Virus record (IMG/VR): IMGVR_UViG_3300020577_007013
Origin: a virus
Lineage: Duplodnaviria > Caudoviricetes
Length of the DNA: 64,000 bases
Reading direction: 5' to 3' (one strand)
The translations under genes and the position numbers were made by a program. Below the pieces are notes generated by a model. It made no database searches. It saw nothing but the letters and a program-made list of their open reading frames with translations, and was not told where the DNA came from. Positions 20,793 to 51,110 of this stretch are shown one piece after another (positions within the stretch are counted from its first letter, which is position 1; the number at the start of each line of letters is the position of its first letter).

Positions 20793-21047
20793 CTAACAAT
20801 CTTTCAGAAGATTCTTGACTTTGTTCATATACTTTTCACCAGGAATCATTGGCATGACTTCTTCTAGCTCTTCACCTGAAATCCAAAAACTTCCATAGTC
20901 AGGTAGACCGACGACCACATGTCGTCCATCTACTCTTTTGACTTCCAAGTAATCAAGTCTTCTTATAATCTCTCTTGGTTTTTTTAGAGTCTCTGATAGT
21001 CCACTCAAATAAACTTCCTTATTTTTCAGTCTAACGTACAAGATCAA
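20793..21047 (-). CDS. family-B protein (C-term EKYMNKVKNLL)
   Basis: Shared C-terminal motif. Confidence 0.75.
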   Translation of the reverse strand: MILYVRLKNKEVYLSGLSETLKKPREIIRRLDYLEVKRVDGRHVVVGLPDYGSFWISGEELEEVMPMIPGEKYMNKVKNLLKDC

Positions 21048-21312
21048 CCACCTTTTGTTTGTATTCTGACTCTAATTTGGTCTCTTCTTTGAAAAGATCA
21101 AGGTCCTTAGGAGACAATCTCGGTTTTAATCCTTCATATTCTAGAGTAATAATAATTTGTTGAATCGCTTCATCGAACTCTGAAGTACAATAGAAGTCTT
21201 TTCCTCTGTCGATTGCTGCTTGAAATCTTTTTACAGAGGTAGTATTTCCGTATATAGATTGAAGATATCGTTTAACCGGGACTTCGGAGTTAGGTTTTAT
21301 TTTAGCTCTCAT
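21031..21312 (-). CDS. family-B protein (C-term SEYKQKVVDLV)
   Basis: Shared C-terminal motif. Confidence 0.75.
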   Translation of the reverse strand: MRAKIKPNSEVPVKRYLQSIYGNTTSVKRFQAAIDRGKDFYCTSEFDEAIQQIIITLEYEGLKPRLSPKDLDLFKEETKLESEYKQKVVDLVR

Positions 21313-21578
21313 AATTTAAGAACCTTGTTGACGTACTTTTCTTTGAGCTTCTCATTTACTTTTTCATTAATGACAAAATGTTTAGGCAAATTGAAGACAG
21401 CTTCTCCTATGCTTAAGATGTAGTCTCCGTCAGTCCCTTCACTCATTGCGAACCAATCATTGTCTTCTTCACTGAGTCTGTTTCCGACGTACTCTTGAAT
21501 AAGCTCACTGCTAATATGTCTAGTCTTGTCAAGAAGGTAGTCTATTCCTGCACTAGAGATTTGCTTCTTTACGAGCAT
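21309..21578 (-). CDS. family-B protein (C-term EKYVNKVLKL)
   Basis: Shared C-terminal motif. Confidence 0.75.
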   Translation of the reverse strand: MLVKKQISSAGIDYLLDKTRHISSELIQEYVGNRLSEEDNDWFAMSEGTDGDYILSIGEAVFNLPKHFVINEKVNEKLKEKYVNKVLKL

Positions 21579-21820
21579 AGATCTAAGACCTTTTCCTTGT
21601 AACTTTTCTCGGAGTCTTTATTCACTTCAGTGAGAAGATTGACGTCTAGATAAACTGAGACTGCATCGGCTTGAATATAGCTTCTTCCCATAAAGCCTGC
21701 TTCTGACATTAGAAATTCTTCATTGTCTTGAATGTATTTGAGAGTCTTGATGTTGAACTTACTGAAGTTGTCTTCTATGAACTTTTGCTTACAACCGATT
21801 TTGAATCTGACTGTCTTCAT
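21569..21820 (-). CDS. family-B protein (C-term KSYKEKVLDL)
   Basis: Shared C-terminal motif. Confidence 0.75.
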   Translation of the reverse strand: MKTVRFKIGCKQKFIEDNFSKFNIKTLKYIQDNEEFLMSEAGFMGRSYIQADAVSVYLDVNLLTEVNKDSEKSYKEKVLDLCS

Positions 21821-22083
21821 AGAATTTGTAAGAGCTTTTCCTTATACTCTGTCTCGATTTCAGACTCGACTATATGCACTTGATCTAGGAAAAGACTCAT
21901 GACTCCTGGATTTAGACTGTTCAAAGGATCACTAGGAAAGAGTATGGTGATCAGCTTTCTATTATTAATAGATCTTCCTCTATCTTCAGCTTTGAAATAA
22001 GGGGTTGTTCTGAGTACTCTACTCATACCAGGATAAGCGTCAATGCAATTTTGGAGCATATTTCTTTTAATCATTACCGTCAT
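21817..22083 (-). CDS. family-B protein (C-term TEYKEKLLQIL)
   Basis: Shared motif; start revised to MTVMIK. Confidence 0.7.
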   Translation of the reverse strand: MTVMIKRNMLQNCIDAYPGMSRVLRTTPYFKAEDRGRSINNRKLITILFPSDPLNSLNPGVMSLFLDQVHIVESEIETEYKEKLLQIL

Positions 22084-22384
22084 TCGAAAGATCCTGAACT
22101 TTCTTCTTGTATTCTTCAAACTTTTCTGAATGGACTACCTCATAGGTTCCTTCAGAGAAGTCTATAGACTCTCCCATAAATTCTACCAAAGGTTCTGGAA
22201 TTTTTACAGTGGCTCCACCTTCAATTTTTTCAGCTTCCATATAAGGATTATCGATTAAGAAGTCTCTTAAGACTTTCAAAAGCTTTGTCTCCTGTTTGGT
22301 GAACGGTGAGTCTTTCTTTTTAATCTCATCTTCTAAGAATTCCTTGAATTGGCTTTTGATTCTGTGATCGAGGTTAATTCGCAT
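22067..22384 (-). CDS. family-B protein (C-term EEYKKKVQDL)
   Basis: Shared C-terminal motif. Confidence 0.75.
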   Translation of the reverse strand: MRINLDHRIKSQFKEFLEDEIKKKDSPFTKQETKLLKVLRDFLIDNPYMEAEKIEGGATVKIPEPLVEFMGESIDFSEGTYEVVHSEKFEEYKKKVQDLSNDGND

Positions 22385-22671
22385 ATCAACTTAGTCTTGT
22401 ATTTATCCATAATAGATGATTTATAGAGTACAAAATAATTAGGATCTATTGGAACAAATCCAGGAACAGAAAGCTCTTCAGGAAGAACCATTTCTACTCC
22501 GGTAGAAGACTTGGAGTTGGTCTCGACTTCGAAGACAGTTACAGAGTCTATGTATTTTAATATGTCTAGTTTTTTCTGATCATCGATGATATTAGACTTT
22601 ACTTTTTTGAAAACTTCTACCAAATGGTCTCTGAACTCTGTTCTTCCATTTCTCAAGAAGACCGCTCTCAT
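22333..22671 (-). CDS. family-B protein (DKYKTKLICEL)
   Basis: MRAVF N-terminus plus C-terminal motif. Confidence 0.75.
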   Translation of the reverse strand: MRAVFLRNGRTEFRDHLVEVFKKVKSNIIDDQKKLDILKYIDSVTVFEVETNSKSSTGVEMVLPEELSVPGFVPIDPNYFVLYKSSIMDKYKTKLICELTSITESKANSRNS

Positions 22672-22979
22672 AAAAGCTCTCTGACTTTTTTCAAATAGTC
22701 TTCCTCAACCCTAGACTTGATTATTTCTATCCACTCTTCTCGTAGAGGAAATTTTCCGGTATGCTTCTTGTTCAGTTTGTTAAGTGACTCTTTAGGAATA
22801 ATCATTGAGTAGGATCCAACACCCAGTCCCTCGACTACTTCAAATCTCTGTGCATCGACGATCAAATTTATGAAGACCAATTTTTCTTCTTTAGAAAAAG
22901 AGAATTGAAGGTTTTCCAAAGAACTTGTAAGCCATTCCAAACATAGAGTCTTGGCTCCTTCTTTGAAGACTGCTTTCAT
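22668..22979 (-). CDS. family-B protein (EDYLKKVRELL)
   Basis: MKAVFKEGAK N-terminus plus motif. Confidence 0.75.
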   Translation of the reverse strand: MKAVFKEGAKTLCLEWLTSSLENLQFSFSKEEKLVFINLIVDAQRFEVVEGLGVGSYSMIIPKESLNKLNKKHTGKFPLREEWIEIIKSRVEEDYLKKVRELL

Positions 22980-23257
22980 AATTGGAGAATTTTTTCTTTG
23001 TATTCTTCTTCTATCTTAGAAATCCAAGGAATAGTGGAGTCTGCTTCCACTTTCACTCTTTGTTGACCTATGTTAAGAGTCTCGACTATTACAAAAGATC
23101 CTTCGGAAGTCTTCTCGAAGAGTCTTTCTTTCTTCAGTCCTTCAATTATAGATGTGAAATCAGATGGCTTGACCCCTAATCCTAAAGCTGTGGTGGACAT
23201 TCCCTCTAATTTGGAGATGAGTCTTTCCTTGGCTCCTGGTTTGAAGACCACTTTCAT
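22976..23257 (-). CDS. family-B protein (EEYKEKILQL)
   Basis: MKVVFKPGAK N-terminus plus motif. Confidence 0.75.
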   Translation of the reverse strand: MKVVFKPGAKERLISKLEGMSTTALGLGVKPSDFTSIIEGLKKERLFEKTSEGSFVIVETLNIGQQRVKVEADSTIPWISKIEEEYKEKILQL

Positions 23258-23559
23258 AGTAAGTCCTTCAAACGTTCACTGTAAATGAGTTTGGATTCCT
23301 TTTCCTTGACTACCTTCATAAAAGTCGGATCGACAGGAAACCATTCTGCTTCAAGTTCTTCTCTGAATTGTTTAGGAACGAACAAATCGAAGCCGTCTTC
23401 TGATATGACCCCTTTGAAGTAAGGGGACTTGCCCAAAAATTCTCTCAAAGCTTTAAGCTTCTTACTGTTATTCTTTCTCTCCTTCATTTCAGAGAGAATC
23501 TGTTCTATGTATCTCTCTTTAGAGAGACCATCAAATTGAAGTAGTCTTACGTCATTCAT
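23254..23559 (-). CDS. family-B protein (LIYSERLKDLL)
   Basis: Similar to 22067..22384. Confidence 0.75.
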   Translation of the reverse strand: MNDVRLLQFDGLSKERYIEQILSEMKERKNNSKKLKALREFLGKSPYFKGVISEDGFDLFVPKQFREELEAEWFPVDPTFMKVVKEKESKLIYSERLKDLL

Positions 23560-23932
23560 AGTCTGTATTCAAAGCCATGTCGATCCAAAATTTAAGAGCT
23601 TCTCTGATGGTAGGCTTCCAACCCTTTTTGTCTTCGATTATGAAGGACATATTTTCTATGATTCCTTCATTTCCTTTTTCATCTACAGGGATTGATTGGA
23701 AACCTGTGTCTTGAATAATCCAAAGTCCATTGTCATCATAGAGAATGGAAGGACTGAAGCCTAGCTTTGTAAAGGACTCTATAATGAAGTCAACTGTAAG
23801 TGTATCGAAGCGATCTGTTAGATACCCTATGATCTCCACTGTCAGCTTGTCTGCTTCAGGATCGTCGTAGTTCAAGTCGAGAAGTTTAGATCTCTTTTCG
23901 ATGAGTTCTGCAATGTGGTTCTGATCGATCAT
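23552..23932 (-). CDS. hypothetical phage protein
   Basis: ORF track. Confidence 0.75.
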   Translation of the reverse strand: MIDQNHIAELIEKRSKLLDLNYDDPEADKLTVEIIGYLTDRFDTLTVDFIIESFTKLGFSPSILYDDNGLWIIQDTGFQSIPVDEKGNEGIIENMSFIIEDKKGWKPTIREALKFWIDMALNTDYE

Positions 23933-24123
23933 TTAAAGAGCTCCTTTACATTCTCCCCATTGTTCCAGATATAAGCGACTTTATTCGTCTCTGTATTCTC
24001 TAGAATAATGGTAGCTTCTCCATTCCGAATCTCTCTTACTCTCATCCAGACTCCTCGATTAGACTCATGCTTAGGGTCTCTTAATCTGATTGATCGTCCT
24101 ATATGAGTTTTGTCAAGAATCAC
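23929..24123 (-). CDS. small SH3/KOW-like protein, paralog of the N-domain of 24120..24788
   Basis: IG...LRD....N.GVW.RV shared. Confidence 0.7.
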   Translation of the reverse strand: MILDKTHIGRSIRLRDPKHESNRGVWMRVREIRNGEATIILENTETNKVAYIWNNGENVKELFK

Positions 24124-24788
24124 TTAGAGTATTTTTTAAGAGCTTCTTCCAGAACAGTTTTTCGTTCGGTCGATTTCTTGATAGATAAATTGACTTCTTC
24201 GAGCTCGTTCAGAATCTCTTTATAGATCTGAGATGCTCGTTCTTGTTGTCTCGTTGCAAGCTCTTTGTCAGCGAGCTCCTTAGCTTTAATAAGATTTTCG
24301 CTTTCAATGTCCCCTAATTCCTTAAGTTGATTTTCGCTTATCATTTTTGTCTCCTTTAGTTCTTCAATTATAGTATGACTTGATAGAGTTGGGTCGAACT
24401 CTGAGATGTCTTCAATTTCTCGTTCATCCCAAAAATATCCATCAGAACAAGGTCTTCTGGTCGAAGGTCCTAAGCTATCGACTCTTAGCCATTTTCCTAC
24501 ATTTTTTTGTAGAAGAGTAGAGTCGAAACGGAGACTTGACTTTATTTTAATCCACATTCCGACTTCTATGTCTGAAAATTCTAGTTTTTTCTTAGTGGTC
24601 ACTTCGCATAGATCTGTAACTCTATTTTGGTAGTCTGCAATTGCCCATGAGTTCCTAGTATTGGGATTCTCTATGATTATATGGTCACTACCAACGGATA
24701 ATATTCTAAGCCAGACACCTTCATTCTCTACTTGAAGAGAATCTCTTATCTTAACGAAGTGTCCAATATTTTTGCTTGTTAATTTCAT
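24120..24788 (-). CDS. tandem SH3/KOW-like domains plus coiled coil
   Basis: N.G.WLR(I/V) occurs twice; C-terminal heptads. Confidence 0.7.
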   Translation of the reverse strand: MKLTSKNIGHFVKIRDSLQVENEGVWLRILSVGSDHIIIENPNTRNSWAIADYQNRVTDLCEVTTKKKLEFSDIEVGMWIKIKSSLRFDSTLLQKNVGKWLRVDSLGPSTRRPCSDGYFWDEREIEDISEFDPTLSSHTIIEELKETKMISENQLKELGDIESENLIKAKELADKELATRQQERASQIYKEILNELEEVNLSIKKSTERKTVLEEALKKYSK

Positions 24789-25202
24789 TTATTCTTCCTC
24801 AAAATCTGGATCATAGTCCTCATTTGAACTACTTGTTTCAATGTTCAACTGATCGAAGAAGAAGTCTCCTTCATCATATCGTATTTCAATACCATTTTTG
24901 ATCTCTATGGTGAGTCCTAATCTTTCCTCAACCGATTCTCCTGGAAGAAGCTCAGTGATACCTATGAGACCGGCGTCAACAGGAAAAGAATGTGAGTATT
25001 CCTTTCCTTCAATGTAACCGTCTCCATTGTAGACCCCATCTCCGTAAGCAGTTCCAGCAGCCCAGACTGTTCGTCCTTTGAAATTATGAACCTTTGATTC
25101 ATCTTCGAACATATCTACATGATCGAGAAGATCTGACCAATCCTCGTCAGGAATTGCATAACAAGGATCTCCAATAAAGTATTTTCCTGGTTTAATTTTC
25201 AT
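24789..25202 (-). CDS. conserved phage protein (GDPCY / TAYGDG / VDAGLIG; DUF4241-like)
   Basis: Motifs recognised by eye. Confidence 0.65.
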   Translation of the reverse strand: MKIKPGKYFIGDPCYAIPDEDWSDLLDHVDMFEDESKVHNFKGRTVWAAGTAYGDGVYNGDGYIEGKEYSHSFPVDAGLIGITELLPGESVEERLGLTIEIKNGIEIRYDEGDFFFDQLNIETSSSNEDYDPDFEEE

Positions 25203-25567
25203 CTTGATTCTCCTTCCATAATTTTGTGAAGTACGTGAGTCTTAGATAACTCGAATATATCAGGTCTTTTGTTTCTGAAGTGATTCACTTTTCTGATCTC
25301 TTTAATCATGAATTTGTGAATAGGATTTCTCAATTCGTTTATGTCAAGTTGATCTCTTCCGTAATTGAAAATTGTTCTGATAATAGCATGATTAGGTTGC
25401 TTGATTGACCAACCTTTTATGTTGTCAATTATCATTTTCCTTAAGAACCAAGCTCCGAAAAATGAATCGAGAAGTGTGAACTTATTCGTTAGATTTTTTA
25501 CATTATAGGAAGGAAATGAAAGTCCTCTGTATTTTGTGAGAAAGACGAAGCATCTTAGGAATAACAT
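25199..25567 (-). CDS. hypothetical protein (start uncertain)
   Basis: Trimmed from 25762 to avoid the divergent + gene; AAGGA upstream. Confidence 0.5.
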   Translation of the reverse strand: MLFLRCFVFLTKYRGLSFPSYNVKNLTNKFTLLDSFFGAWFLRKMIIDNIKGWSIKQPNHAIIRTIFNYGRDQLDINELRNPIHKFMIKEIRKVNHFRNKRPDIFELSKTHVLHKIMEGESR

Positions 25568-25699
25568 TTCAAAGATTTCCTTTGAATAACTATAATAGAC
25601 TTCGAGAATCTCAGCTCCTAAATTTTTCCACTTATCGATCGTTTCTCTTAAATCTGTATTATACCATAATTCATGGCAGACAGAAAGTTCCTTAAACAC

Positions 25700-25713
25700 A
25701 CTAACCTTGTATG
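25700..25713 (+). promoter_or_regulatory. ACTAA-N6-ATG candidate late promoter at a divergent start
   Basis: ACTAACCTTGTATG. Confidence 0.6.
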
Positions 25714-25941
25714 GAACGATATGAAAGCTTTTATGAAAAGAAAGGAAAGAAGAAGAAATCAACGTCGAAGAGCAAGGAGAAACCCTTGAAAGTCGGAGAT
25801 CGAGTGGTACAGAAAACTTCAGGAATCGAAGGTACTGTTCTAGTAAAACCGACCAAAGACAAGAAATATATTCCCATTAAATGGGACGGAAGCTCTCAAA
25901 CTACACAACATGTAGACTCTATCAAAAAGGTGGAAAAATGA
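25711..25941 (+). CDS. tagged basic KOW/SH3-like protein (MERYESFYE)
   Basis: LKVGDRV....G..GTV motif. Confidence 0.7.
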   Translation: MERYESFYEKKGKKKKSTSKSKEKPLKVGDRVVQKTSGIEGTVLVKPTKDKKYIPIKWDGSSQTTQHVDSIKKVEK

Positions 25942-26399
25942 ATCCCTTAATCAAATCAATCTCTAAGACTTACAATTTAATCGAAGAAGATGTAGCAGCT
26001 GAATGGGAAGAAATTAGAGAGGAGCTTGGAGTGACCGATGAAAAGATCGGTGCTTCTGTTATCCTTAAAGAATTCAAAGCTAGATACTCCGATGCTACTT
26101 ATAAGTCTCAATTCAATGAAGCAAAAGACATCGTAAAATTTACTTCAGAACAAAAGAAAAAGCTTCTCAAATATTGCTCAGTAAAAGTCGGTGCAATCTT
26201 TCATCAGGCTCTTCTTACTACAGGAACAAGTCCAGAAGGTGAAGCAGAGCTCTTAAATCAAGTCATTGAAAAATTTATCAAAGAAGAGCCTATGAACTTC
26301 AAAGAAGAGCCTAAAGAAGAACCTAAAAAAGAGAAACAAGAAGAGAGCTTCTTTGAAGGAGAAAGCTTCTCAGGAATTTACAAGAAATTGTTTAAGTAA
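25938..26399 (+). CDS. protein with internal (YKSQFNE) and C-terminal (YKKLFK) tags
   Basis: Start revised to MNPLIK. Confidence 0.7.
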   Translation: MNPLIKSISKTYNLIEEDVAAEWEEIREELGVTDEKIGASVILKEFKARYSDATYKSQFNEAKDIVKFTSEQKKKLLKYCSVKVGAIFHQALLTTGTSPEGEAELLNQVIEKFIKEEPMNFKEEPKEEPKKEKQEESFFEGESFSGIYKKLFK

Positions 26400-26420
26400 A
26401 GCTTCAGTAGAACCTAGACA

Positions 26421-26582
26421 ATGGAGTACGACCTCGAACAACTCTGGGATGAATGTAAAGAAGAAGCATCTGAAGAAGGGAGAGAAGAGGACTTCAAATA
26501 TCTTCGAGACAAAGTCGCTGAGAAGTTAGGTGAAGAGCCTTTGACAGAGTCTGTCACTAAATACAAACCGTTGTTTACATGA
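26421..26582 (+). CDS. 53-aa acidic protein ending TKYKPLFT; not in ORF track
   Basis: Manual translation. Confidence 0.7.
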   Translation: MEYDLEQLWDECKEEASEEGREEDFKYLRDKVAEKLGEEPLTESVTKYKPLFT

Positions 26583-26592
26583 GGAACTCAAC

Positions 26593-27153
26593 TTGAAATT
26601 CATAAAAGAAAAAGGAAGACTCCCTATCTACTCACTCTACATCAAGAATATTGTTCGTAAAGGATTTATAGACCTTAGTGCTGTATTCAACGATCTTTTC
26701 TCACATGAAAAGCGAGACCCAATTTTCAGAGCAGCTGGCTTTATAGGTGCTGTAGCTTGTGAAGTAGGTGAAAGAGACTTTATGAATAATGTCGCTCAAT
26801 ATGCTAAGTCATATTCTGAAGGTAACTTTCAACGATATGTCCCTCTATTCGAAGGAATTGATCCTGTTGAAAAGAGTGCTCCTATTAACAAAGATAAGTT
26901 AGGAAGAGGCAAGGATAAAAAGAAAGTCCTTCCTCTTGATTCAGAAAAGAGTAATGTACCGTTTGATCTTCTTCTTCAAGCTCAAGAGTTGAAAGCTAAA
27001 GGAAAAACATTCGAAGAAGTTCGTAATCATTTCAAGTTAACTCATGATCAAATGAGACAGATATTTTCAGACTATTCAGTGCCGCATGATTTAGAAGCTT
27101 CGTTTAAGAGATCTGACCGACACAGAGATAGAGTTCTTTCACAAAAGCCCTAA
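26593..27153 (+). CDS. hypothetical protein with internal tag (RYVPLFE)
   Basis: ORF; GAGG before TTG. Confidence 0.7.
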   Translation: MKFIKEKGRLPIYSLYIKNIVRKGFIDLSAVFNDLFSHEKRDPIFRAAGFIGAVACEVGERDFMNNVAQYAKSYSEGNFQRYVPLFEGIDPVEKSAPINKDKLGRGKDKKKVLPLDSEKSNVPFDLLLQAQELKAKGKTFEEVRNHFKLTHDQMRQIFSDYSVPHDLEASFKRSDRHRDRVLSQKP

Positions 27154-27447
27154 GATCTTCTCTACATAAGAGTCCATGTCCCAATTGACAGGACCTAAAA
27201 TATGAACACTATTTTTAGGAACGATCTTTCCGAATCTATGCATAGGGTGAACGCATACCACGTAATAGTCCCTTTGATTTTTGAAGTTCTTCAATGAGAG
27301 TTGATCATTACAATAAAGTATCTGATCATCTTCCACTGTCAATTTAGGAAGATTTTTTCTGACCACAGATCTGAAAAAGCTCATCTGCATTCTGTCGACT
27401 ATTCGACATTTAAACCAAGTCACTTTTAAGTTTCTTTTTGTACTCAT
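27139..27447 (-). CDS. family-B protein (DSYVEKILGLL)
   Basis: C-terminal motif; start uncertain. Confidence 0.7.
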   Translation of the reverse strand: MSTKRNLKVTWFKCRIVDRMQMSFFRSVVRKNLPKLTVEDDQILYCNDQLSLKNFKNQRDYYVVCVHPMHRFGKIVPKNSVHILGPVNWDMDSYVEKILGLL

Positions 27448-27664
27448 CTAAAAGATCATTGACTTCCACAACGTCTCTTGCATCTATCGATGTAAAAGAT
27501 TTTATTCCGAACTTGTCCATAGAAAGCCTTATATAATCGACTCCATTTTTAGGTCCTTGCCACTCCATGACGACATAGAAGACTGTCTGAGAATGATAGA
27601 CTGAAGGCTCATTAGCAAGTCTCCATTTTCTTTCTTCTTCATTCTTAAATCTGACTCTTTTCAT
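27410..27664 (-). CDS. family-B protein (DEYKKKLKSDL)
   Basis: MKRVRFK start plus motif. Confidence 0.7.
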   Translation of the reverse strand: MKRVRFKNEEERKWRLANEPSVYHSQTVFYVVMEWQGPKNGVDYIRLSMDKFGIKSFTSIDARDVVEVNDLLDEYKKKLKSDLV

Positions 27665-27926
27665 AGATGAGTCCATACAAAGTTTCTAAATACTTTAAGG
27701 GAACTAACATAGTCTCGTCTAAATTTGATCCCAATTCGTGTCCGATTGAGAACTTACAGTCTTTATCGTTGTAAATTACATACCAAGTCTCTGGAAAAAT
27801 TTTATGACCTAGAGTAGAGATGTAGAAAGCTCTAGGTCTGTCTTTAGTCTTATCGATAATTTTTTCTCTCATTAAGAATGCTTTTTCAAGCACTAAGGTT
27901 TTGAATCTAATTTTCTTAACCATCAC
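27645..27926 (-). CDS. family-B protein (LKYLETLYGLI)
   Basis: KKIRFK start; similar to 27916..28188. Confidence 0.7.
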   Translation of the reverse strand: MMVKKIRFKTLVLEKAFLMREKIIDKTKDRPRAFYISTLGHKIFPETWYVIYNDKDCKFSIGHELGSNLDETMLVPLKYLETLYGLIYEKSQI

Positions 27927-28188
27927 TTAAGAGCTCATCCAACTTGTCGAAGTATTCTATAGAGACTTGTTTATCTTTGTCTTCTGTCAAATCTTTTCCC
28001 GTCCACATTCCGAGTTTATGTCGACAGTCTTGATCTAAATGAATCGTATAGTCGACTGGGTCCATGAGATATCTTGTAGTAGACTGTACAAAGTAGTCCC
28101 TCAATCCAGTCCTGATATCTCTAATTCCGAGACTTATCAGAAAGTCTTCCTCAGACTGACGATCCTTAAATTTGACTTTTATCGTCAT
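27916..28188 (-). CDS. family-B protein (IEYFDKLDELL)
   Basis: IKVKFK start plus motif. Confidence 0.7.
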   Translation of the reverse strand: MTIKVKFKDRQSEEDFLISLGIRDIRTGLRDYFVQSTTRYLMDPVDYTIHLDQDCRHKLGMWTGKDLTEDKDKQVSIEYFDKLDELLSDG

Positions 28189-29407: not shown

Positions 29408-29422
29408 GTTAAAATATAATAC

Positions 29423-31234: not shown

Positions 31235-31470
31235 AATCCTCCAATGAAAAAGAAGAATAAATTAAGATAATCAGACATGGCCTCTATAAAGCAGAACATG
31301 AAAGCCACATAAATAAGAAGAACTCCTACTCTTATGATGATCTCTTCATGAGGTCTGACTTTAATGAGAGCTCTCATCATAGTTCCTAAAAATCTTGTAA
31401 AGAAATAGGAAACAAAGAAAACGATCAGGAGAAAGAATGAAAGATCTATGATGTTACTCTGAGTCACCAT
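31231..31470 (-). CDS. small two-TM membrane protein
   Basis: Hydrophobicity. Confidence 0.65.
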   Translation of the reverse strand: MVTQSNIIDLSFFLLIVFFVSYFFTRFLGTMMRALIKVRPHEEIIIRVGVLLIYVAFMFCFIEAMSDYLNLFFFFIGGL

Positions 31471-32372
31471 TCGTGTATGTCACCTGTTCTCAAAATTCCT
31501 TTGTATTGTGACTCGTCAATAGGAGGTTCTTCATTGTAGTGATACAGGTAGAGCTTCTTTTTGATATCTTCAGGAGCCTGGTCTACTTCAGTCCAGTGGC
31601 TATGCACCCCAGATTTCGGTCCAGTCTCAGTATCTTGATAAATGATGTCTGCTTTATCGTAAAAAATTTTCATTGTGGGAGGCATCATAAACATTGTATC
31701 TGTCGGGAAATAAATGCATTTTCCATCTGAAGATTCAAACATCAGACCGTAAGACGGCATTGATCCCATTCCTGACATAACATGAGTACTTTCTATGGTA
31801 TAGAATTTCCAAGTCCTTTTTCCATCTTGAATTGTTTTCGCAATATTTGTCGTCATAGACCTTATAGTAAAGTATGTAGATAAATTGACTTTCATCATAC
31901 CTTGAATGGTATTTAAACCAGGAGACGTTGCAGTCCAAAGATCTTTCAGAACTTCTTTATGTCCGAACAGTTCAGGCTTACAGTCATCTGGAAGTTCTTC
32001 TTTGAGACAAGCATCTGCAACAGCTAATCTTCCAGGAGTAATTTTTTCCAACCAGTCTTTTTTCCATGATCTCCAATATGGATTAAAGAATGTCGAAAGA
32101 GCTATGCATTCACAAGATCCTTGGTGATCAGAGTGATTATGTGAAAGGAAAAATGCATCAAGCTCATGAATTTTAAGTCCAGTAGAATACAGAAGGGAGT
32201 GTCTCAGATCAGAACCGAAGTCTAGAACAAATCTGTAAGGTCTCTCTTTTCCTATGTCAAACTCTAACAAAAAATTAGACTGAAACTTAGGTTTGTAACA
32301 TTTCCCTTTATCTGTTTCGACTACTTCCCCAGTAGCGAAAGCGCTGTTAACTCCAAGAGCTGTGACTTTCAT
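31464..32372 (-). CDS. MBL-fold hydrolase, Apyc1-like (anti-Pycsar cyclic nucleotide phosphodiesterase)
   Basis: LG..SAF, SHNHSDH, LSTYFTIRS, THV, DT, SGVH, LYHY. Confidence 0.75.
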   Translation of the reverse strand: MKVTALGVNSAFATGEVVETDKGKCYKPKFQSNFLLEFDIGKERPYRFVLDFGSDLRHSLLYSTGLKIHELDAFFLSHNHSDHQGSCECIALSTFFNPYWRSWKKDWLEKITPGRLAVADACLKEELPDDCKPELFGHKEVLKDLWTATSPGLNTIQGMMKVNLSTYFTIRSMTTNIAKTIQDGKRTWKFYTIESTHVMSGMGSMPSYGLMFESSDGKCIYFPTDTMFMMPPTMKIFYDKADIIYQDTETGPKSGVHSHWTEVDQAPEDIKKKLYLYHYNEEPPIDESQYKGILRTGDIHEW

Positions 32373-41645: not shown

Positions 41646-41665
41646 GAATTAATAGATTAGAAGGA

Positions 41666-41678
41666 ACTAAATTGTATG
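41666..41678 (+). promoter_or_regulatory. ACTAA-N5-ATG candidate late promoter
   Basis: ACTAAATTGTATG at a divergent start. Confidence 0.6.
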
Positions 41679-43345: not shown

Positions 43346-43647
43346 CTGCAGACCAGGGAAAAATGTGGTGTCATAATTTTTCGATACCCTTAAAAGAATT
43401 TAAAGACTATCAAGAAATGATAGATGTAATGGAAGAACAACTTATCTCTTCAGGGTTTTCTATCTTTGGAAAATTAGAAAAAAAGTTTGGCGAGACAGAC
43501 ATCACTGTAATGTGGGGACTATGTGAATCGCATTTAGCTTGCCACTCCTTCTCAGAAATTGGGGAAATCCAATTTCAACTCGCTTCTTGCAACTATGAAA
43601 AGTATCGCAACTTTCTAGACTTGAATGCTAAAGAGTTCGGCTGCTAA
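43342..43647 (+). CDS. speD: S-adenosylmethionine decarboxylase proenzyme-like protein
   Basis: T....L.ESH...H.F.E.G.....ASC. Confidence 0.7.
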   Translation: MTADQGKMWCHNFSIPLKEFKDYQEMIDVMEEQLISSGFSIFGKLEKKFGETDITVMWGLCESHLACHSFSEIGEIQFQLASCNYEKYRNFLDLNAKEFGC

Positions 43648-43935
43648 CTTAGATTTGTAAGATTCAGGGATTGGAGGAAATTTACTGATTTCCTTAATTA
43701 CTGAACTATTGAAGACACATTTTCTTACACTTGACTTTACAATAATATATGCTTCAATTTTGATTGAGTCGTTGTAAGGACTTTCATCTTCTAATATTCT
43801 GAATGAGACAATACGGTAGTATTTGTCTTTAGCAAGAACCCAAGTATAGTTCTCTTTATCTTTTCCTAGAACCCCATTTGAAAATAAAACATATCTTCCA
43901 GGCTTAAGAGTCCTTTTGACTTCTTCTACGACCAT
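43615..43935 (-). CDS. family-B protein, LKxG subtype (ESYKSKLAAEL)
   Basis: EVKRTLKPGRYVLF plus C-terminal motif. Confidence 0.7.
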   Translation of the reverse strand: MVVEEVKRTLKPGRYVLFSNGVLGKDKENYTWVLAKDKYYRIVSFRILEDESPYNDSIKIEAYIIVKSSVRKCVFNSSVIKEISKFPPIPESYKSKLAAELFSIQV

Positions 43936-44233
43936 TGGAGTACTTCCAGAAGTTTTTCTTTGTAGTCTAATGGAATTTCAAAAAGTCTGTCAGTAACAAT
44001 AGAGTCGACTATTCGACTGGAAAAATTGGAGCCAATAAAGTCTTCCCGATATAAAGCTTGATTTGGACTTCGAGCTTATTGTCGATAAATCTAGATTGTT
44101 GGTCTTCAATTCTAAAAAATTGATTATTTGGAATAAGGAAAGATTCCCCTACAGAGCTTTCACAGTAAAGAGTCCCTGAAAACTTGATGTAGTTTCCGAT
44201 CTTAAGCTTGTCTAAAATCTCAGTCTGTGTCAT
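43926..44233 (-). pseudogene. family-B paralog with a 1-nt frameshift near 44043
   Basis: Shifted frame continues DFIGSNFSSRIVDSI..IPLDYKEKLLEVLQWS*. Confidence 0.7.
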
Positions 44234-44553
44234 TAGATAGAGCTCAATTCTGAGAGAAGTCTTTCTTTTATTTCTTTTCTTATAATTGTGTTGTGATTGA
44301 CCGCAAATGAGTCAATCTCAGTATGTAGAAACTTAATTGTGTCTATAGAAGATAGAGGTCCTCCTCTTCTCGTTTTAATGGTAATTTCCAAAGCTGTGGT
44401 TATCCTTCTATAGCTTACATCTAATATCTCATATTCCTGAGTCGGATGAACTTTTACTTTAAAAGCTTTCCCTTCACAGTCGACTCGAATAGGTTTTTTG
44501 AAAGTAAGCCTATTTCCGACTTTTAAGTTGGCTTTGATCTCACCTATTGTCAG
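44233..44553 (-). CDS. family-B paralog with probable CTG start; not in ORF track
   Basis: (M)TIGEIKANLKVGNRLTF..EIKERLLSELSSI; AGGAG upstream; in-frame TAG just upstream. Confidence 0.65.
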   Translation of the reverse strand: MTIGEIKANLKVGNRLTFKKPIRVDCEGKAFKVKVHPTQEYEILDVSYRRITTALEITIKTRRGGPLSSIDTIKFLHTEIDSFAVNHNTIIRKEIKERLLSELSSI

Positions 44554-44710: not shown

Positions 44711-44725
44711 AGTTGACTCCTCCCT

Positions 44726-45211: not shown

Positions 45212-46047
45212 AAAAGCTCCTTGATCATTTGTAAATTTTTCTGATAATCAGGAATGAGATGATAAGAGTTCCCTATCGCATAGTGATAGACTGTATGAAG
45301 TAAGGAATATTTTTGGTATTGAGCAAAAGTCTTGCACTCCACAGGATCGGAATCGAGAATATACTTGACCACCCTTGTATTGATAATGTATTCTTCATTT
45401 TTGAGAATTTTGTCAAGGTCCACCAGATTCTTTACGAAATAGTAATTGAGGTAATTCTCTATAGAAGGATCGGTCTTCTCATCTATCAGCTCGGCATAGT
45501 AAATGAAGTAGGGCTCTATGCAATGTTCGAATTCTTTAATCGATTCCTTTACTCTATGCTCATGAGCTCCTGTAATTCGTATGTCATCGAGGAATAGACA
45601 AATTCTTCCTTTGAGAAAGTTTTGGTCGAGATAGAAAAAGTCTCCTTTCATGACTGACATTCTTTGTTCTTTTGTCATCTCTCCGTATTCTTCTTTGTAG
45701 GAAGATCTTCTGTAAACTTTCGACTCTTGAACTGGACTGCACCCCTTGTCCACAAGAATTGAATTGAGAGTTCTTACGAAGTAGTCCTTCATTGCAAAGG
45801 TTGCTGTAGGAATGTGGAGATAAGGGGAAGAGAGAACGACTATGGTCTTATCTGATTTGATGATCTCCTTAAATATGTCAGAACTTGAGAATCCGTTTGC
45901 TAAATCATGACCGAATTCTCTTGCTGTAGTCTTGCAACCGAACTTGAATTTAGAATAGTCAATCGGTTGGAGACAAGCATAATGATCTTGAGTTGCCTCT
46001 ATGTCTTCAATCGATCTGAACTTCTTAAGGCTGAATCGATTTTCCAT
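45208..46047 (-). CDS. phosphoribosyltransferase-family protein (PRTase_2-like)
   Basis: YSKFKFG; LFLDDIRITGAHE. Confidence 0.8.
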   Translation of the reverse strand: MENRFSLKKFRSIEDIEATQDHYACLQPIDYSKFKFGCKTTAREFGHDLANGFSSSDIFKEIIKSDKTIVVLSSPYLHIPTATFAMKDYFVRTLNSILVDKGCSPVQESKVYRRSSYKEEYGEMTKEQRMSVMKGDFFYLDQNFLKGRICLFLDDIRITGAHEHRVKESIKEFEHCIEPYFIYYAELIDEKTDPSIENYLNYYFVKNLVDLDKILKNEEYIINTRVVKYILDSDPVECKTFAQYQKYSLLHTVYHYAIGNSYHLIPDYQKNLQMIKELL

Positions 46048-46621
46048 TTTTAAGTCCTTTCATAAATTTTAGCATCTCTTTCGAAGAATTCTCTTTTAAA
46101 TATTTCTCGACTTCCTTGACAGTGTCATCGATCTCTTTTCTGAGCTTGTCGACTTCATTTTTGTATCTGGCTTTTGTGAGTGTCCTTAAAAGCTCAGAGT
46201 CAATCATGTCTAAAGACTTCAATTGAAAGTCGAGACTCTTTATTTCGGAGCTCTTTCTGGTGACATGATCTCCTAGGTGTGTGACTATAGAGTCCAAATG
46301 CCATTTCTGGGTTATCCTCTTTTCTTTCTCTACCATTCTCCTTTGATCAGTAAAAACATGGCTTGGTATACCCATAATCCTTAAAGAGAGAATGTGAATA
46401 TCTCTAGGTCGCCATTCAGAGAATACTCCAGATCTAATCGATAGAGCTGAAAGCCCTTCTTGAAGAATGACATCCTCTACTCTGAAGTACCTTGATGTAG
46501 CTGAGCTTGTACTGGGAATTTTAGTATCAATATGGAATCCTATTGATGATATTTCACCCATCTCGTCTGTGTTAATTCTAAAAAGTTCAATGAACTCTGA
46601 TTCTTTTTTACTCCTGAACAT
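46025..46621 (-). CDS. hypothetical protein
   Basis: ORF track. Confidence 0.65.
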   Translation of the reverse strand: MFRSKKESEFIELFRINTDEMGEISSIGFHIDTKIPSTSSATSRYFRVEDVILQEGLSALSIRSGVFSEWRPRDIHILSLRIMGIPSHVFTDQRRMVEKEKRITQKWHLDSIVTHLGDHVTRKSSEIKSLDFQLKSLDMIDSELLRTLTKARYKNEVDKLRKEIDDTVKEVEKYLKENSSKEMLKFMKGLKNGKSIQP

Positions 46622-47330
46622 TTAATACATCCTTTACGAAAGTTTTTTGTTGATCAACAAGATAAAAGTCAAGATGCAGTCTCTTGCATCCTTCTCCGTC
46701 AGTAGACTGATCATCTCCCACATGAAGAATGTCTTCTTTTAGAAGCTTAGACTTCAAGAGTTCAGTCATTCTCATTTCGTTTACTGAAATCATCATTTTA
46801 CGAAATGCTACCGTGGAAGGTTTAGAATGTCCGATCTCATCGGAGAAAAAGAAAGCATCGACCAACGGAGCTAAGTTTTCTTTTACGGACGGGGACGTTC
46901 GTATGATCTCTCCATCTAAGATCGCTGTATTAGAGAGAATCGAGATTGTACAGTCTCTCTCTTTAAGTTGCTTAAGTGTAGAGACCGCATCATCGATCAG
47001 AATCGGTGGATACATGTGAAACAGATTGTCGCACCATCTTTTCATTTCTGAAAGAGACTCTGAAGTAATTTCCTTCTCTATTACCCACATTTTATTCATC
47101 GTCTCCATGAAAGAGTAAAAGATTTCTAAAGAGTGAACTTGTCTTCCGACAAGTTTATTTATTATGTTAGCTCTTTCTTCACATCCTGAAAGAACTTTTC
47201 TGATGGTGTCTTCGGAAGCTGTCTCATAGAACTTTTTCTTGATCAAACTAGCTCTCTCCTCTTTATAACGAGGATCTGGCTTGATCAAAGTTCTCCAAAG
47301 ATCAAACGAATAATGTTTGTACTTCTTCAT
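46608..47330 (-). CDS. HAD-family hydrolase
   Basis: SFDLWRTL, LSN, SKP, HVGDD..TD. Confidence 0.85.
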   Translation of the reverse strand: MKKYKHYSFDLWRTLIKPDPRYKEERASLIKKKFYETASEDTIRKVLSGCEERANIINKLVGRQVHSLEIFYSFMETMNKMWVIEKEITSESLSEMKRWCDNLFHMYPPILIDDAVSTLKQLKERDCTISILSNTAILDGEIIRTSPSVKENLAPLVDAFFFSDEIGHSKPSTVAFRKMMISVNEMRMTELLKSKLLKEDILHVGDDQSTDGEGCKRLHLDFYLVDQQKTFVKDVLNVQE

Positions 47331-48403
47331 TTTTTGTCAAGCTTCACTGAATTGTCAACGAACTTGATCGTTGGGCACATTGTCTTGTTCCATACAGCTT
47401 TCAGCATGTCCCAATTTTCTGCTCGTTTCTTTCTCTTTTCTGCTTTGATTTTTTCCTTGAATTCTCTCAGTTCAGCTCTCTTTCTCAGACTGTCAAGGTC
47501 AGACAATGCTTTCTTAGAGAATTCTGAATCGATGAATAGACCGATAATGATCTCGAGTTTGTCCTTCTTAATCTTATTGCCAATATTCCCGTAGTAAAAA
47601 GTCTCTCGTAAGAGATCTTGGACGACTTTCTCTGAATTCTCTATGAGTCTATCGACAATTTCTCTTACTGAGTATGCAGAGACTCTAGGAATGATTCCGT
47701 CTTTGATGTCCTTGAAAAAGGCTTCGACCGCCTTCTGCTCTTGGGAAGCATATTCAGAGTTATTCTCTCTAATTCTTTTCCTGATCTTAGTCATATCGAT
47801 CTTGATTTCCTTCCCGACTTTCCCTTTGAGAAGTTCCTCATATTTAAGCTTATGTTTTTCAAGCTGTCGTTCATTGAATTTTTCATGCATTTCAATAATC
47901 CATTTACCGAATGCACCTAGATGGACAGCTACATTTTTACCGACGAAGTAAAATCCAAATCCAATTCCGAATAGAATGAATCCTATTATAAGAAGAGGGG
48001 TTGCAGCTGCGAGTCCGATTATTACAAATGGAAGTAAAACTGTAGTGGAAAGTAGATGACTCCAAAAGAGTCCACATAATGAAGTCTCTCGACTTGCATA
48101 ATAATGAGCATCAATAATGACCCTCTTAATATACGGACACCAACATCTTTCTCCCCAATCCTTTGTTGGGTGTTTTGCGTAAGCTGTAGATCCGTTATGT
48201 TTACGGAACCCATGAAGGGTAGACCAAGGAAGCATTGTCAGAAATCGTATTCGATAAAATGTAGAAGACCGATTGATCACAATGAGTCCGTCTTCTTTTA
48301 CGAACATAGAGATCACAAGAGTGAGGAACATGAGACATCCTATTCCTCCCAACACAGTAAAGGTCCAGTATAGAATTGGACTCGTTAAAATTTTTGCTAT
48401 CAT
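47327..48403 (-). CDS. membrane protein
   Basis: Multiple TM segments followed by a charged helical region. Confidence 0.7.
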   Translation of the reverse strand: MIAKILTSPILYWTFTVLGGIGCLMFLTLVISMFVKEDGLIVINRSSTFYRIRFLTMLPWSTLHGFRKHNGSTAYAKHPTKDWGERCWCPYIKRVIIDAHYYASRETSLCGLFWSHLLSTTVLLPFVIIGLAAATPLLIIGFILFGIGFGFYFVGKNVAVHLGAFGKWIIEMHEKFNERQLEKHKLKYEELLKGKVGKEIKIDMTKIRKRIRENNSEYASQEQKAVEAFFKDIKDGIIPRVSAYSVREIVDRLIENSEKVVQDLLRETFYYGNIGNKIKKDKLEIIIGLFIDSEFSKKALSDLDSLRKRAELREFKEKIKAEKRKKRAENWDMLKAVWNKTMCPTIKFVDNSVKLDKK

Positions 48404-48714
48404 TTTTTCATTCCTTCCTTGAGCTCATCGACATAGATCTTTGCTTCCATGAGCTCTAATTTGAGATGCTCTTTACAAAACTTGATTGACTCAATATATC
48501 TCCTTCTTTTGAGAAGAGCTTTCAGCCTATTGTTCACTTGAAGTTGAGTCAATCTTTTTGGTATCTTTCCTTCTTTTGCTTTGTCGATCTTATCTTTGAG
48601 TTCGAAGAGTTGATTCGCTGAAAGCTTTTTGTTCTTGTAGAATGCTATCCAAGCATTGTGACGTTTCTTAGCATCATAGATAACGTCAAGACCCTTATAC
48701 TTGGTTTTTAGCAT
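48400..48714 (-). CDS. protein with ribosomal L7/L12 CTD-like C-terminus
   Basis: YIESIKFCKEHLKLELMEAKIYVD. Confidence 0.55.
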   Translation of the reverse strand: MLKTKYKGLDVIYDAKKRHNAWIAFYKNKKLSANQLFELKDKIDKAKEGKIPKRLTQLQVNNRLKALLKRRRYIESIKFCKEHLKLELMEAKIYVDELKEGMKK

Positions 48715-48905
48715 TATTCTATCTCGTGTGAAGTGAGAAGTTTGTAAGTATCACCGTTGATGAAGACTGAATCAGAGCATCGATCCATTGGATCTTTGTA
48801 AACTTTGATCTTGACTCCATTTTGATTACGATAGTGACAATTCTCACCTTGACAGTTCATCGATGATGCAGAGATAAGAAGTAGGAGAATCATGTACTTC
48901 TTCAT
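48714..48905 (-). CDS. small secreted protein or lipoprotein
   Basis: Signal peptide ending ..SMNC. Confidence 0.6.
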   Translation of the reverse strand: MKKYMILLLLISASSMNCQGENCHYRNQNGVKIKVYKDPMDRCSDSVFINGDTYKLLTSHEIE

Positions 48906-49231
48906 TTAAGCTCCTTGACTTCTGTAATTCTGTATTGTGAGTCTCCTGAACAGCTTGTTGTAAGCTTCTTCTGAGTGTAGTTGAGTCGAACTTTCATTCC
49001 AGCAGATGACTGAATCTGTTTCGCAACATTTTCATCTTCAACTGAGAATTTGAAAAGACGAGATTTACCGTATGAACCTTGACCGTCCATGACGAGTTGT
49101 CCTTCCCAAGTCTTACAGACAATTCCCTTCTTAGAGAATTTGTCAACGACTCCGATTCGAAAGCCTTCTGAATAATCATAGGCCGTTAGTGAAGCAGTCA
49201 ATATGACTGCCAATGTAATGAGTTTTTTCAT
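48902..49231 (-). CDS. conserved exported protein (YSEG.R.G...KFS.KG...KTWEG)
   Basis: Signal peptide plus motif. Confidence 0.75.
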   Translation of the reverse strand: MKKLITLAVILTASLTAYDYSEGFRIGVVDKFSKKGIVCKTWEGQLVMDGQGSYGKSRLFKFSVEDENVAKQIQSSAGMKVRLNYTQKKLTTSCSGDSQYRITEVKELK

Positions 49232-49278
49232 TTGTATCTCCCTTAACTTGATTGATGAAACCTTGATGGTTCCTACAA

Positions 49279-49312
49279 GTTAATTATAATAGAGTTGGGA
49301 GATTTTCGAAGA
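49279..49312 (-). promoter_or_regulatory. candidate early promoter
   Basis: TCTTCGAA-N11-TCTA-T-TATAAT-TAAC. Confidence 0.65.
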
Positions 49313-49320
49313 CGAAATTT

Positions 49321-50874
49321 CTAAAGTTTGTATCTACCGTCAGGAGCTATCCAAATCATTTGTCTAACACCGTTTCTATAGATAACGCAATTCATATTTT
49401 GATGAGAACTTGAACCTTTCTGGTATTCTAATTCAAGAGCTAAAGTTCCGACTCTAAACACTTTTCTCAAGACTGAAGGACTATGAGAATGAGCCAATAC
49501 ACAAGCTTGTAAAGAATATTCAGCATTAACATTTGTAGATCTAGTTCCGTTCGGACCATTGTCGCCATGTTCAGAGACTAGAATTTTTTTAGTGGAGACA
49601 TATTTTATGGTTTTTCTAGTAAGCCAATTTAGTCCTTTTCTCAAATCAGGATAGTGCTTTTCAATATAGTACTGAATGATATTTTTATCGTCTAAATCTG
49701 CAAGTGCCAATTCCAAAGCAATTCTATAATTAGGGACATCATTGAAGAATCTTTGTTCATGGAGGTATCTGTCTAAATGCTCATGATGGTTGGAAGCTAT
49801 GAGATCAATTTCGATTCCTTCTTTAAGTCCTTCTTTCCAAGTGGAAAGTTCTTTTGCTAGAAATTTTAGTTCATTTTCAAGAGTAGCAACATGACCTTTT
49901 TCTTCCATTTTCTTGACTTTAAGCTTCATGTTGTAATTGTGATGATGAGATACTGAGTATCCATCCATCCAATCACCGCCACCTACTGTCTTGACATTTA
50001 AAGCATTAGCCATGTCTATGGAAGCTTTTCTAGCATATTCATCGGTGAATCCTGAATGAACGTCTCCTACCACTAAATATTCTGCTGAGACTTTTTTCAC
50101 AGTTCCGTCTGGGCAATATTGTTTGTCGAGATCATAAAAAGATCCGTCGTAATTTGCTCTTACAAATCTCCAAAAGAATGTATCAGTCTTTCTATCAATC
50201 TCGACTATGACACCGCCAATGACAGCATCTTTTTCTGCTAGAAAGCCTGAATGAGTCTTTGCATATTTTCTGGTAGTAATAGTTCCTGTGCTTATGACTG
50301 ATTTAGGTTTAGAACGATCTATCACAGCCACAGATCTGAAGTTTTGTTTAGGGCTTGCAATTATGATACTTCCGTCATCTGTATGATGGAGACCTTTAAG
50401 AGTCGCATCTGGAGATTGTGGGGGCTCTTGAATATCTAAAGCTTTTAAATTGGAGCAGAGATGAAATTCAGTAGCATAGTATTTGTAAAGTTCCTGAACT
50501 TCAGGAGTATAGAATTTATGCTCATGATGAACTCCACGCATAGTGAGAAGAACAATTTCAGCATTCCGTTTTTTCTCCAATGTCTTGACTGACTGCCAGA
50601 ATGGTTTATTGAGATTGCTTTCAGGAAGAATTGAAGTAATGAAAATTACATCTTTTTCAGAGTCATTTTTTCGAATGATCTCTAAGCCAGTTCTTTGAAA
50701 TTTGATTCCCTCTTCTCTTAGCTTAACGAATGAGCCATCCCAATATTCATCTAAAACTTTTTGTGAGAATTTTGTTTTTTCGAGCCAATGGTCTCTGGTA
50801 ATTCGAGACCCTTTTTTGTAGTTTTTCTGGATGATCTTGATTTCTTCTAATACTTCTTTCTTCTTGGCTTCCAT
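49321..50874 (-). CDS. large-phage metallophosphoesterase-fold protein
   Basis: GDVH, GGD..D, SNH, EHGD.G.NG, AHSHSP. Confidence 0.75.
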   Translation of the reverse strand: MEAKKKEVLEEIKIIQKNYKKGSRITRDHWLEKTKFSQKVLDEYWDGSFVKLREEGIKFQRTGLEIIRKNDSEKDVIFITSILPESNLNKPFWQSVKTLEKKRNAEIVLLTMRGVHHEHKFYTPEVQELYKYYATEFHLCSNLKALDIQEPPQSPDATLKGLHHTDDGSIIIASPKQNFRSVAVIDRSKPKSVISTGTITTRKYAKTHSGFLAEKDAVIGGVIVEIDRKTDTFFWRFVRANYDGSFYDLDKQYCPDGTVKKVSAEYLVVGDVHSGFTDEYARKASIDMANALNVKTVGGGDWMDGYSVSHHHNYNMKLKVKKMEEKGHVATLENELKFLAKELSTWKEGLKEGIEIDLIASNHHEHLDRYLHEQRFFNDVPNYRIALELALADLDDKNIIQYYIEKHYPDLRKGLNWLTRKTIKYVSTKKILVSEHGDNGPNGTRSTNVNAEYSLQACVLAHSHSPSVLRKVFRVGTLALELEYQKGSSSHQNMNCVIYRNGVRQMIWIAPDGRYKL

Positions 50875-50879
50875 AAAGG

Positions 50880-51110
50880 TTAGTCAATAATGTCCATCAA
50901 CTTTTCTTTGTATTCATCAATATAAAATGTTTTTAGTATGGATTCCATCGCTGTTCGTCCTGAAAGTAAGAGCACACTCACTCTATCGCAATAGTCACAT
51001 CTAAGAGTCAAGGTCGTCACTCCTACTGTGAGAATAGAATTCCACTGGGGCCTTTTGCAGAACTGACATTTGAAGTGGATGGACTTCTGGTCGCTTTTCC
51101 ATTTTATCAA
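50880..51110 (-). CDS. Zn-ribbon protein with family-B C-terminal motif (DEYKEKLMDII)
   Basis: CQFC..CDYC plus motif. Confidence 0.7.
   Translation of the reverse strand: MIKWKSDQKSIHFKCQFCKRPQWNSILTVGVTTLTLRCDYCDRVSVLLLSGRTAMESILKTFYIDEYKEKLMDIID

Follow-up and report, generated by a model that had tools for sequence, protein, structure and literature searches.

A conserved C-terminal helix on at least 22 small, divergent proteins of an uncultured phage

In F-box proteins, and in poxvirus ankyrin proteins with a C-terminal PRANC/F-box-like domain, variable target-binding parts are combined with a constant C-terminal element that engages a single hub. Other proteins dock through a short helix whose hydrophobic residues are spaced i, i+4 and i+7, the p53 activation peptide on MDM2 being one example, and a protease adaptor can dock through its C-terminal tail, as SspB does on ClpX. 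In T-even phages, the internal proteins, encoded at polymorphic loci, are tagged by a capsid-targeting sequence (CTS; Rao and Black 2010, PMC3012670). Here we describe a short C-terminal helix, hereafter referred to as the tail, that is shared by small proteins of an uncultured phage (IMGVR_UViG_3300020577_007013). The bearers are encoded in a window of 64,000 nucleotides (the whole stretch of DNA that was analysed) and in 9.3 kb upstream of it on an overlapping contig. Selection acts on the tail as a peptide, and nothing else is common to the whole set. We propose that it is a common protein-protein interaction handle that docks into a shared partner, a reading to which we assign a probability of about 0.45.

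Clear members among the small open reading frames (ORFs) were defined by the pattern Y-x-x-[KR]-[LVI]-x-x-[LIV], located 0-14 residues ahead of the stop. Fifteen minus-strand ORFs of the window terminate in such a tail, of the form (E/D)-(E/x)-Y-K-x-K-(L/V/I)-x-x-L: all 10 ORFs at 20793-23559 (array 1), three of the four at 27139-28188 (array 2), and the genes at 43615-43935 and 50880-51110. Three variants (27645-27926, a frame-shifted copy at 44009-44233, and the 44233-44553 copy) bring the number to the 18 or so small proteins with a shared tail that a first-pass annotation of this DNA had counted. At the last positions of the 441 window ORFs, the strict pattern matches 12 times against 1.0 expected from its rate elsewhere than at C-termini, a roughly 12-fold enrichment (Poisson ~1e-9) that upholds the count. 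With seven plus-strand genes upstream, the bearers number at least 22.

The consensus of the tail is E/D-E-Y-K-E/K-K-(V/L/I)-x-(D/E/Q)-L-L, over a helix length of 11-13 residues. Among the 15 tails, position 0 is Tyr in 94%, preceded by Glu or Asp at -2 (63%) and Glu at -1 (44%), and followed by Lys at +1 (57%), Lys or Arg at +3 (95%; Lys 88%, Arg 7%), Leu, Val or Ile at +4 (95%), Asp, Glu or Gln at +6 (~58%; Asp or Glu ~45%) and Leu or Ile at +7 (76%). The hydrophobic residues are thus spaced i, i+4 and i+7/8, and the helix is amphipathic, with a hydrophobic moment of 0.15-0.69. Lysine beside the hydrophobic face, together with acidic residues at -2 and -1, reads as the pattern of an exposed recognition helix and not of core packing alone. 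The net charge ranges from -3 to +3 with a mean of ~0, the acidic residues standing at -2, -1 and +6. A membrane-targeting amphipathic helix of the MinD/FtsA type, which combines net positive charge with large hydrophobic residues, was ruled out by this mean charge: the tail is not cationic, and a membrane anchor is therefore unlikely. The 0-14 residues that follow the motif vary in sequence and differ even between orthologues, which indicates that it is the helix that has been kept and not a free C-terminus. The same variability, and the ends that change between orthologues, ruled out an ssrA-like C-terminal degradation tag; the distance between tail and terminus is not constant, which makes a terminal degron unlikely.

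Conservation of the tail is a property of the protein. Different copies encode the same tail residues with different synonymous codons. Orthologous arrays are found on metagenome contigs L001-L004 and L006, and in 12 orthologue pairs from these contigs the ratio of nonsynonymous to synonymous substitution rates (dN/dS) is 0.15 for the tail at dS 1.0 (proportion of synonymous differences, pS, ~0.55) and 0.135 for the body at dS 1.25. Purifying selection in these pairs shows that the array genes are real, and synonymous drift combined with a low tail dN/dS places the conservation at the protein level and not in a DNA signal. A nucleotide signal, be it a recombination joint or a site of ribosome binding or re-initiation serving the gene that overlaps downstream, would fit the purine-rich tail codons, which precede the ATG of the next gene by 15-30 nt, and a cassette deletion junction that falls within two tails (see below). 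However, synonymous codons vary freely among copies, pS and dN/dS between orthologues have the values given above, and tails also occur on operon-final genes (20793 and 27139) and on singletons. Such a signal is an extremely improbable cause of the conservation, and the synonymous-site data led us to exclude it.

The seven upstream bearers show that the tail is not tied to one body or one strand. Contig L007, a 35-kb contig that overlaps the start of the window (window position 1 is L007 9258), supplies the 9.3 kb upstream. Its bearers, all on the plus strand, are a 69-aa KOW-like protein (L007 12-221), three paralogues of 135-139 aa (L007 1771-2982), a 141-aa Cys-rich protein (L007 5987-6412), a 78-aa SH3-like protein (L007 6769-7005) and a 101-aa protein (L007 7602-7907), and they are interleaved with genes for proteins with an N-terminal Y-K-x-x-F-x-E tag. 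The tail is therefore not confined to the minus-strand arrays. The first-pass annotation had taken its ~18 bearers for early proteins; this description may suit the minus-strand arrays, but seven further bearers lie on the plus strand among the N-tag genes. Promoter and terminator consensus scans did no better than on shuffled sequences, so that the label "early" is drawn only from strand, operon context and the absence of an ACTAA-N-ATG signal.

The Cys-rich protein allows the tail to be separated from the fold. Its homologues in other uncultured phages (P0014 and P0015 at 53-54% identity; P0016 at 44%) align solidly with it as far as residue 122, an invariant Tyr. Whereas P0014 and P0015 end 8-9 residues past this Tyr, with the motif absent, the protein of the window lineage runs on for 19 residues and ends in K-Y-E-E-K-V-S-E-L-L-Q. 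No such tails were found in the genomic neighbours of P0014 and P0015 (contigs L014 and L013, respectively). Because these homologues lack it, the tail on the Cys-rich body is a lineage-specific addition and not part of the fold.

The bodies to which the tail is attached show no detectable similarity across the set. Mean pairwise identity is 38% for the 10-residue tail (in fixed register), 26% for the bodies and 28% for shuffled bodies. Leave-one-out hidden Markov models (HMMs) made with the tails removed ranked the omitted member no higher than unrelated ORFs, and profile-profile comparison of six body groups (hhalign) gave probabilities of 2% or less. BLAST links only some bodies, into the sets 22668/22976/22333, 22067/23254, 27645/27916, the 43615-44553 trio and 23929/24120 (genes named by their lower coordinate), so that the bodies amount to small subfamilies and singletons. 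The body types with a tail are those of family B, which start M-K-x-V-x-F-K, SH3/KOW-like barrels, Cys-rich proteins and the 135-139-aa family. The earlier description of the bodies as very divergent was thus borne out by HMMs, hhalign and shuffles alike. One feature recurs: an N-terminal phi-x-F-K strand is common to arrays 1 and 2 and the Cys4 protein at 50880-51110, which makes common descent of these ~15 genes plausible, though not demonstrable. The Cys4 protein, which the first-pass annotation had called an unrelated Zn-ribbon with the same tail, does carry the tail; "unrelated" holds in part only, since it shares the strand of family B.

Tandem overlapping genes of similar length with a common N-terminal M-K-x-V-x-F-K strand would also be seen if the helix were an integral element of one rapidly diverging superfamily of small β-barrel paralogues, kept for folding and with no shared partner. 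The loss of a cassette by recombination within the tails, a dynamic typical of paralogue families, points the same way, and rows for SH3, Tudor and KOW-like folds recur for three body types. On the other hand, the conserved positions of the tail include charged residues and not just core hydrophobics, the homologues of the Cys-rich body in other phages fold without a tail, bearers of 135-141 aa misfit a single small barrel, and the fold matches themselves are within noise, as described next. On balance we consider an integral helix unlikely.

Structure prediction suggests more than one topology. The AlphaFold2 model of 22668-22979, computed with 21 paralogues and orthologues (predicted local distance difference test (pLDDT) 80, predicted template modelling score (pTM) 0.62), has the element order b-a-a-b-b-b-b-a, in which the tail forms the helix at residues 90-102 with a pLDDT of ~67-73, against 80-88 for most of the body. 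Searches of the PDB and of viral models returned no significant relative of this model (Foldseek E >= 0.08); its best VIA Z score is 5.1, under the usual noise level of 7-8, and SH3 rows at Z 3.2-3.5, also in the noise range, span residues 1 to ~90 and not the tail. Its best matches among viral models (BFVD) are small uncharacterised proteins of the T4-like Aeromonas phages 65.2, Ah1, Aes508 and phiAS5; these matches are weak (E 0.08-0.4, template modelling (TM) score 0.4-0.6), and the family profile had no hit in a six-frame search of the genome of phage 65. The single-sequence AlphaFold2 model of the Cys4 protein (overall pLDDT 65) contains four strands (75-79), a helix at residues 52-61 and a separate tail helix at residues 68-75 (pLDDT ~50). 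It weakly matches Elf1, Tudor and KOW, the Tudor and KOW matches being in the noise range (E 0.2-0.7). For the 43615 protein, structural neighbours of the ESM Atlas model (pLDDT 0.72) contain WYL and UvrD_C_2 barrels; at TM 0.5-0.63, these too are in the noise range. In both AlphaFold2 models the tail is modelled with lower confidence than the body, despite being the best conserved part. At least two predicted topologies thus bear the tail, among them the mixed order of 22668, the all-β Cys4 body and the SH3-like barrel with its Pro-rich linker, in keeping with the earlier claim of the same tail on a different fold; that claim is weakened in that most bodies weakly match small β-barrels.

Taken together, these observations favour a docking handle. 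The argument is built on the hydrophobic spacing of the tail, its flanking Lys residues and acidic N-cap, the variable residues that follow it, its enrichment at C-termini and its lower model confidence; on the side of the bodies, on their several types, their similarity no greater than that of shuffled sequences, their different topologies and the tail-less homologues outside the lineage. The tail would be a self-stabilised amphipathic helix of 11-13 residues, with an acidic N-cap and conserved flanking Lys, which the phage lineage would have placed or kept as the C-terminal segment of at least 22 small proteins whose bodies are of several types. The helix would dock into one shared partner, of phage or host, and the variable bodies would supply different targets or activities. 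We infer that the tail binds, that its partner is single and what the bodies do. The product of the AAA+ gene at 55003-56193 (a Cdc48/VAT-like single-module protein), which the first-pass annotation had named as a candidate hub, would be a speculative one, as nothing observed here connects it with the tail.

Several points weigh against this interpretation. In the 22668 model, only two residues separate the last strand from the helix, which is where an integral capping helix would sit. The weak small β-barrel matches of most bodies make a single ancient barrel-plus-helix module possible, and the models are of only moderate (pLDDT 80) or low (65) confidence. Moreover, arrays 1 and 2 (14 genes) share an N-terminal strand and similar lengths, and may be one diverged paralogue family that inherited the helix. 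The notion of a constant tail on a variable head was accordingly retained in part: the tail is selected, it was added within the lineage on the Cys-rich body and the bodies are divergent, but a common barrel origin is possible.

The hub could also be the family itself, the tails acting as an oligomerisation module whose helices bind each other to give homo- or hetero-oligomers. The amphipathic character of the helix (hydrophobic moment as above) is consistent with this, and the many co-transcribed and translationally coupled members would be made together. Three turns are short for a stable coiled coil, however, the conserved Lys at +3 would fall at a core "d" position, and the bearers are spread over both strands and several operons. 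We regard self-association as distinctly unlikely.

The presence of an N-terminal tag in the same genome raises another alternative, in which the tail would be a second, uncleaved capsid-loading signal, the counterpart of the N-terminal Y-K-S-K/L-F-x-E tag, and its bearers would be packaged in the head and injected. Y-K-x-K occurs in both tags, as does an acidic residue near +6, and a C-tag matrix places two N-tags among its four best non-member hits (~33,000 positions). C-tag genes are interleaved with N-tag genes near the head maturation protease gene (16098-17036), and the arrays are hypervariable between near-identical phages, like T-even internal-protein loci (PMC3012670). By contrast, the N-tag matrix places only 3 of the 15 tails in the top 60 of 33,183 positions, and only Y, K+1 and K+3 are common to both tags. 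Position +4 is Phe (rarely Tyr) in N-tags, as the pattern by which these were collected demanded, and L/V/I in all C-tags that were scored. The flanks are oppositely charged (acidic in C-tags, basic in N-tags), the acidic +6 is found in only about half of the tails, and the arrays are without the ACTAA-N4-8-ATG signal that precedes many N-tag genes. Capsid loading by the tail is therefore very unlikely in our view. The two tags appear to be distinct motifs, for which a distant relationship is possible. The Cys-rich bearer at L007 5987-6412 begins S-S-Y-K-K-F-L-E-F, which resembles the N-terminal tag, so that this protein may carry both. N-terminal Y-K-x-x-F tags also occur on the minus-strand genes 61070-61504, 62361-62891 and 62893-63291, and in 31464-32372 a tag of the N-terminal type is placed 24 residues inside.

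A stronger form of the docking interpretation is that one dedicated reader, of phage or host, recognises the helix and that the bearers, at least 22 of them, make up a modular library binding different targets. This form is rather doubtful. If true, the reader and its library would give phages an equivalent of the F-box/PRANC adaptor sets, or else an address system additional to the capsid-targeting tag. Large phages encode mostly small ORFans, which offer no handle for study, and a selected peptide shared by more than 20 of them gives an experimental entry point: with the tail as the only bait, one might find an interactor shared by a tenth of the genes in the region.

The minus-strand bearers are arranged as follows. 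Array 1 consists of 10 overlapping genes encoding proteins of 83-112 aa, with a tail on every one. Its downstream half comprises 20793-21047, 21031-21312, 21309-21578, 21569-21820 and 21817-22083 (the last given from its ATG start, the longest ORF extending to 22119), and the remaining half 22067-22384, 22333-22671, 22668-22979, 22976-23257 and 23254-23559. Two SH3-like genes of the same operon (23929-24788, minus strand) contain degenerate copies of the helix: in 23929-24123 the C-terminal end reads E-N-V-K-E-L-F-K, and in 24120-24788 the copy (D-Y-Q-N-R-V-T-D-L) is internal, at residue 52, between two barrels. Immediately beyond the final array 1 gene, where operons converge, the minus strand holds a hairpin followed by a T-rich stretch (20689-20704), plausibly a terminator. 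Array 2 (minus strand) comprises 27139-27447, 27410-27676, 27645-27926 and 27916-28188. The variant tail of 27645-27926 is Y-L-E-T-L-Y-G-L-I, in which T replaces K; the bodies of 27645 and 27916 are paralogous (E ~1e-9), and orthologues of array 2 are present on contig L006.

The third group, also on the minus strand, starts with 43615-43935, in which an SH3-like barrel is joined by a Pro-rich linker (F-P-P-I-P-E-S) to the tail Y-K-S-K-L-A-A-E-L. Its paralogue at 43926-44233 has its body at 44009-44233 (E 0.003 against 43615, in a small database) and its tail, D-Y-K-E-K-L-L-E-V-L-Q-W-S, at 43926-43967 in the -1 frame; a T5 run at 44017-44029 parts the SH3-like body from this tail. The frame break could be a broken copy, an assembly error or slippage. 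The third paralogue (44233-44553) ends in the variant tail I-K-E-R-L-L-S-E-L, with I for Y, and has no ATG, GTG or TTG start before 44391. The 76-aa CxxC...CxxC (Cys4) protein at 50880-51110 (minus strand) ends in Y-K-E-K-L-M-D-I and is encoded directly upstream of a homologue of the phage T5 A1 "DNA transfer" metallophosphatase (49321-50874; phrog_1745, E 2e-69). The A1-like gene is at most 31% identical to any GenBank phage, the one phage to which a search with it led is 33% identical and lacks the tail, and its ATG is preceded by ACTAA-N6, the signal found before many N-tagged late-type genes.

Array 1 differs sharply between close relatives. Over 26332-23942, contigs L001-L003 match the window at 99.4-99.7% identity, but over the array at 23906-21575 identity drops to 76%; L004 behaves likewise, its short flank being 97.8% identical. 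At the point where identity switches, the relatives have an extra 77-aa gene without a tail (L001 2401-2634). The edge of array 1 (switch at 23906-23942) is a recombination mosaic. In the relatives, moreover, the orthologues of 21569 and 21309 are separated by one more cassette, which encodes 81 aa and has a tail of its own. In the window, 21569 ends L-D-L-C-S, the last residues of that cassette, and not I-D-L-C-G-L-F; it is therefore likely that recombination within two tails has removed an entire cassette. The variable bodies encoded in these arrays, whose content changes so much from one near-identical phage to the next, are good candidates for factors of host takeover or counter-defence.

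The window has a G+C content of 36-38% and no tRNA genes, and encodes two RNA ligases, Thg1, PNKP and RlaP, as well as two TnpB genes (OrfB_IS605/Cas12f-like TNB; 12680-13816 and 58584-59657); on the relative contig L009, another TnpB gene lies beside the orthologue of 62893-63291. In the more distant phage of contig L013 (ERR5523446_2937), which has a homologue of the Cys-rich protein, ~27 tandem minus-strand genes (893-9088) encode proteins of 82-114 aa with a common N-terminal helix (..N-L-L-T-K-I-I-L-E-T-A-T..) and variable β-rich ends. This array lies ~5 kb from an AAA_5 (MoxR-like)/DUF2201 gene pair (14019-16622) and is a second set with a constant helix and variable bodies, the constant part being at the opposite end.

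Among 1.84 billion representative proteins, the family is restricted to this lineage: a family profile searched against them gave 12 hits only, all of them near-identical orthologues, and 20 members searched against Pfam and PHROGs gave nothing above noise (Pfam E up to 0.1-1), with no F-box-like domain in Pfam; the family had been reported as unrecognised, and these searches agree. A word search found no homologue of the Cys4 protein, neither the arrays nor 22668 nor the Cys-rich protein had a match among GenBank phages at the DNA level or by tblastn, and full-text literature searches found no paper describing a C-terminal helix family of this kind. To our knowledge this phage tail family has not been described; peptide-tagged protein sets as such are already known.

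Among these, F-box and PRANC proteins differ in that their constant part is a folded domain of 40-50 residues with Skp1 as partner, whereas here it is a helix of 11-13 residues with no Pfam match. The p53/MDM2 and SspB/ClpX pairs resemble the tail in the spacing of three hydrophobic residues on one face and in the use of a terminal appendage on otherwise unrelated proteins; there is no sequence relationship, and the resemblance is one of geometry only. The T-even CTS is alike in that a short peptide is the sole element common to diverse, fast-evolving small phage proteins encoded at polymorphic loci (PMC3012670), and the present genome also has an N-terminal CTS-like tag with which the tail shares Y-K-x-K. 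However, the CTS is N-terminal and is cut off by the head protease, whereas the motif described here lies 0-14 residues from the C-terminus in all clear members and appears to have no consistent cleavage site: the acidic +6 that a hydrophobic-x-Glu site would call for is present in ~45% of the 15 tails (~58% if Gln is counted with Asp and Glu). The hyperplastic regions of T4-type phages are likewise arrays of small ORFans that differ sharply between near-identical phages (PMC2839356, PMC4122927), as they do here, with 99.7% identity in the flank against 76% in the array and whole cassettes gained or lost. In those regions, shuffling proceeds via intergenic DNA repeats of the promoter/stem-loop type (PMC2839356, PMC4122927); here, by contrast, the genes overlap without spacers, and the element they have in common is a peptide whose DNA is not conserved.

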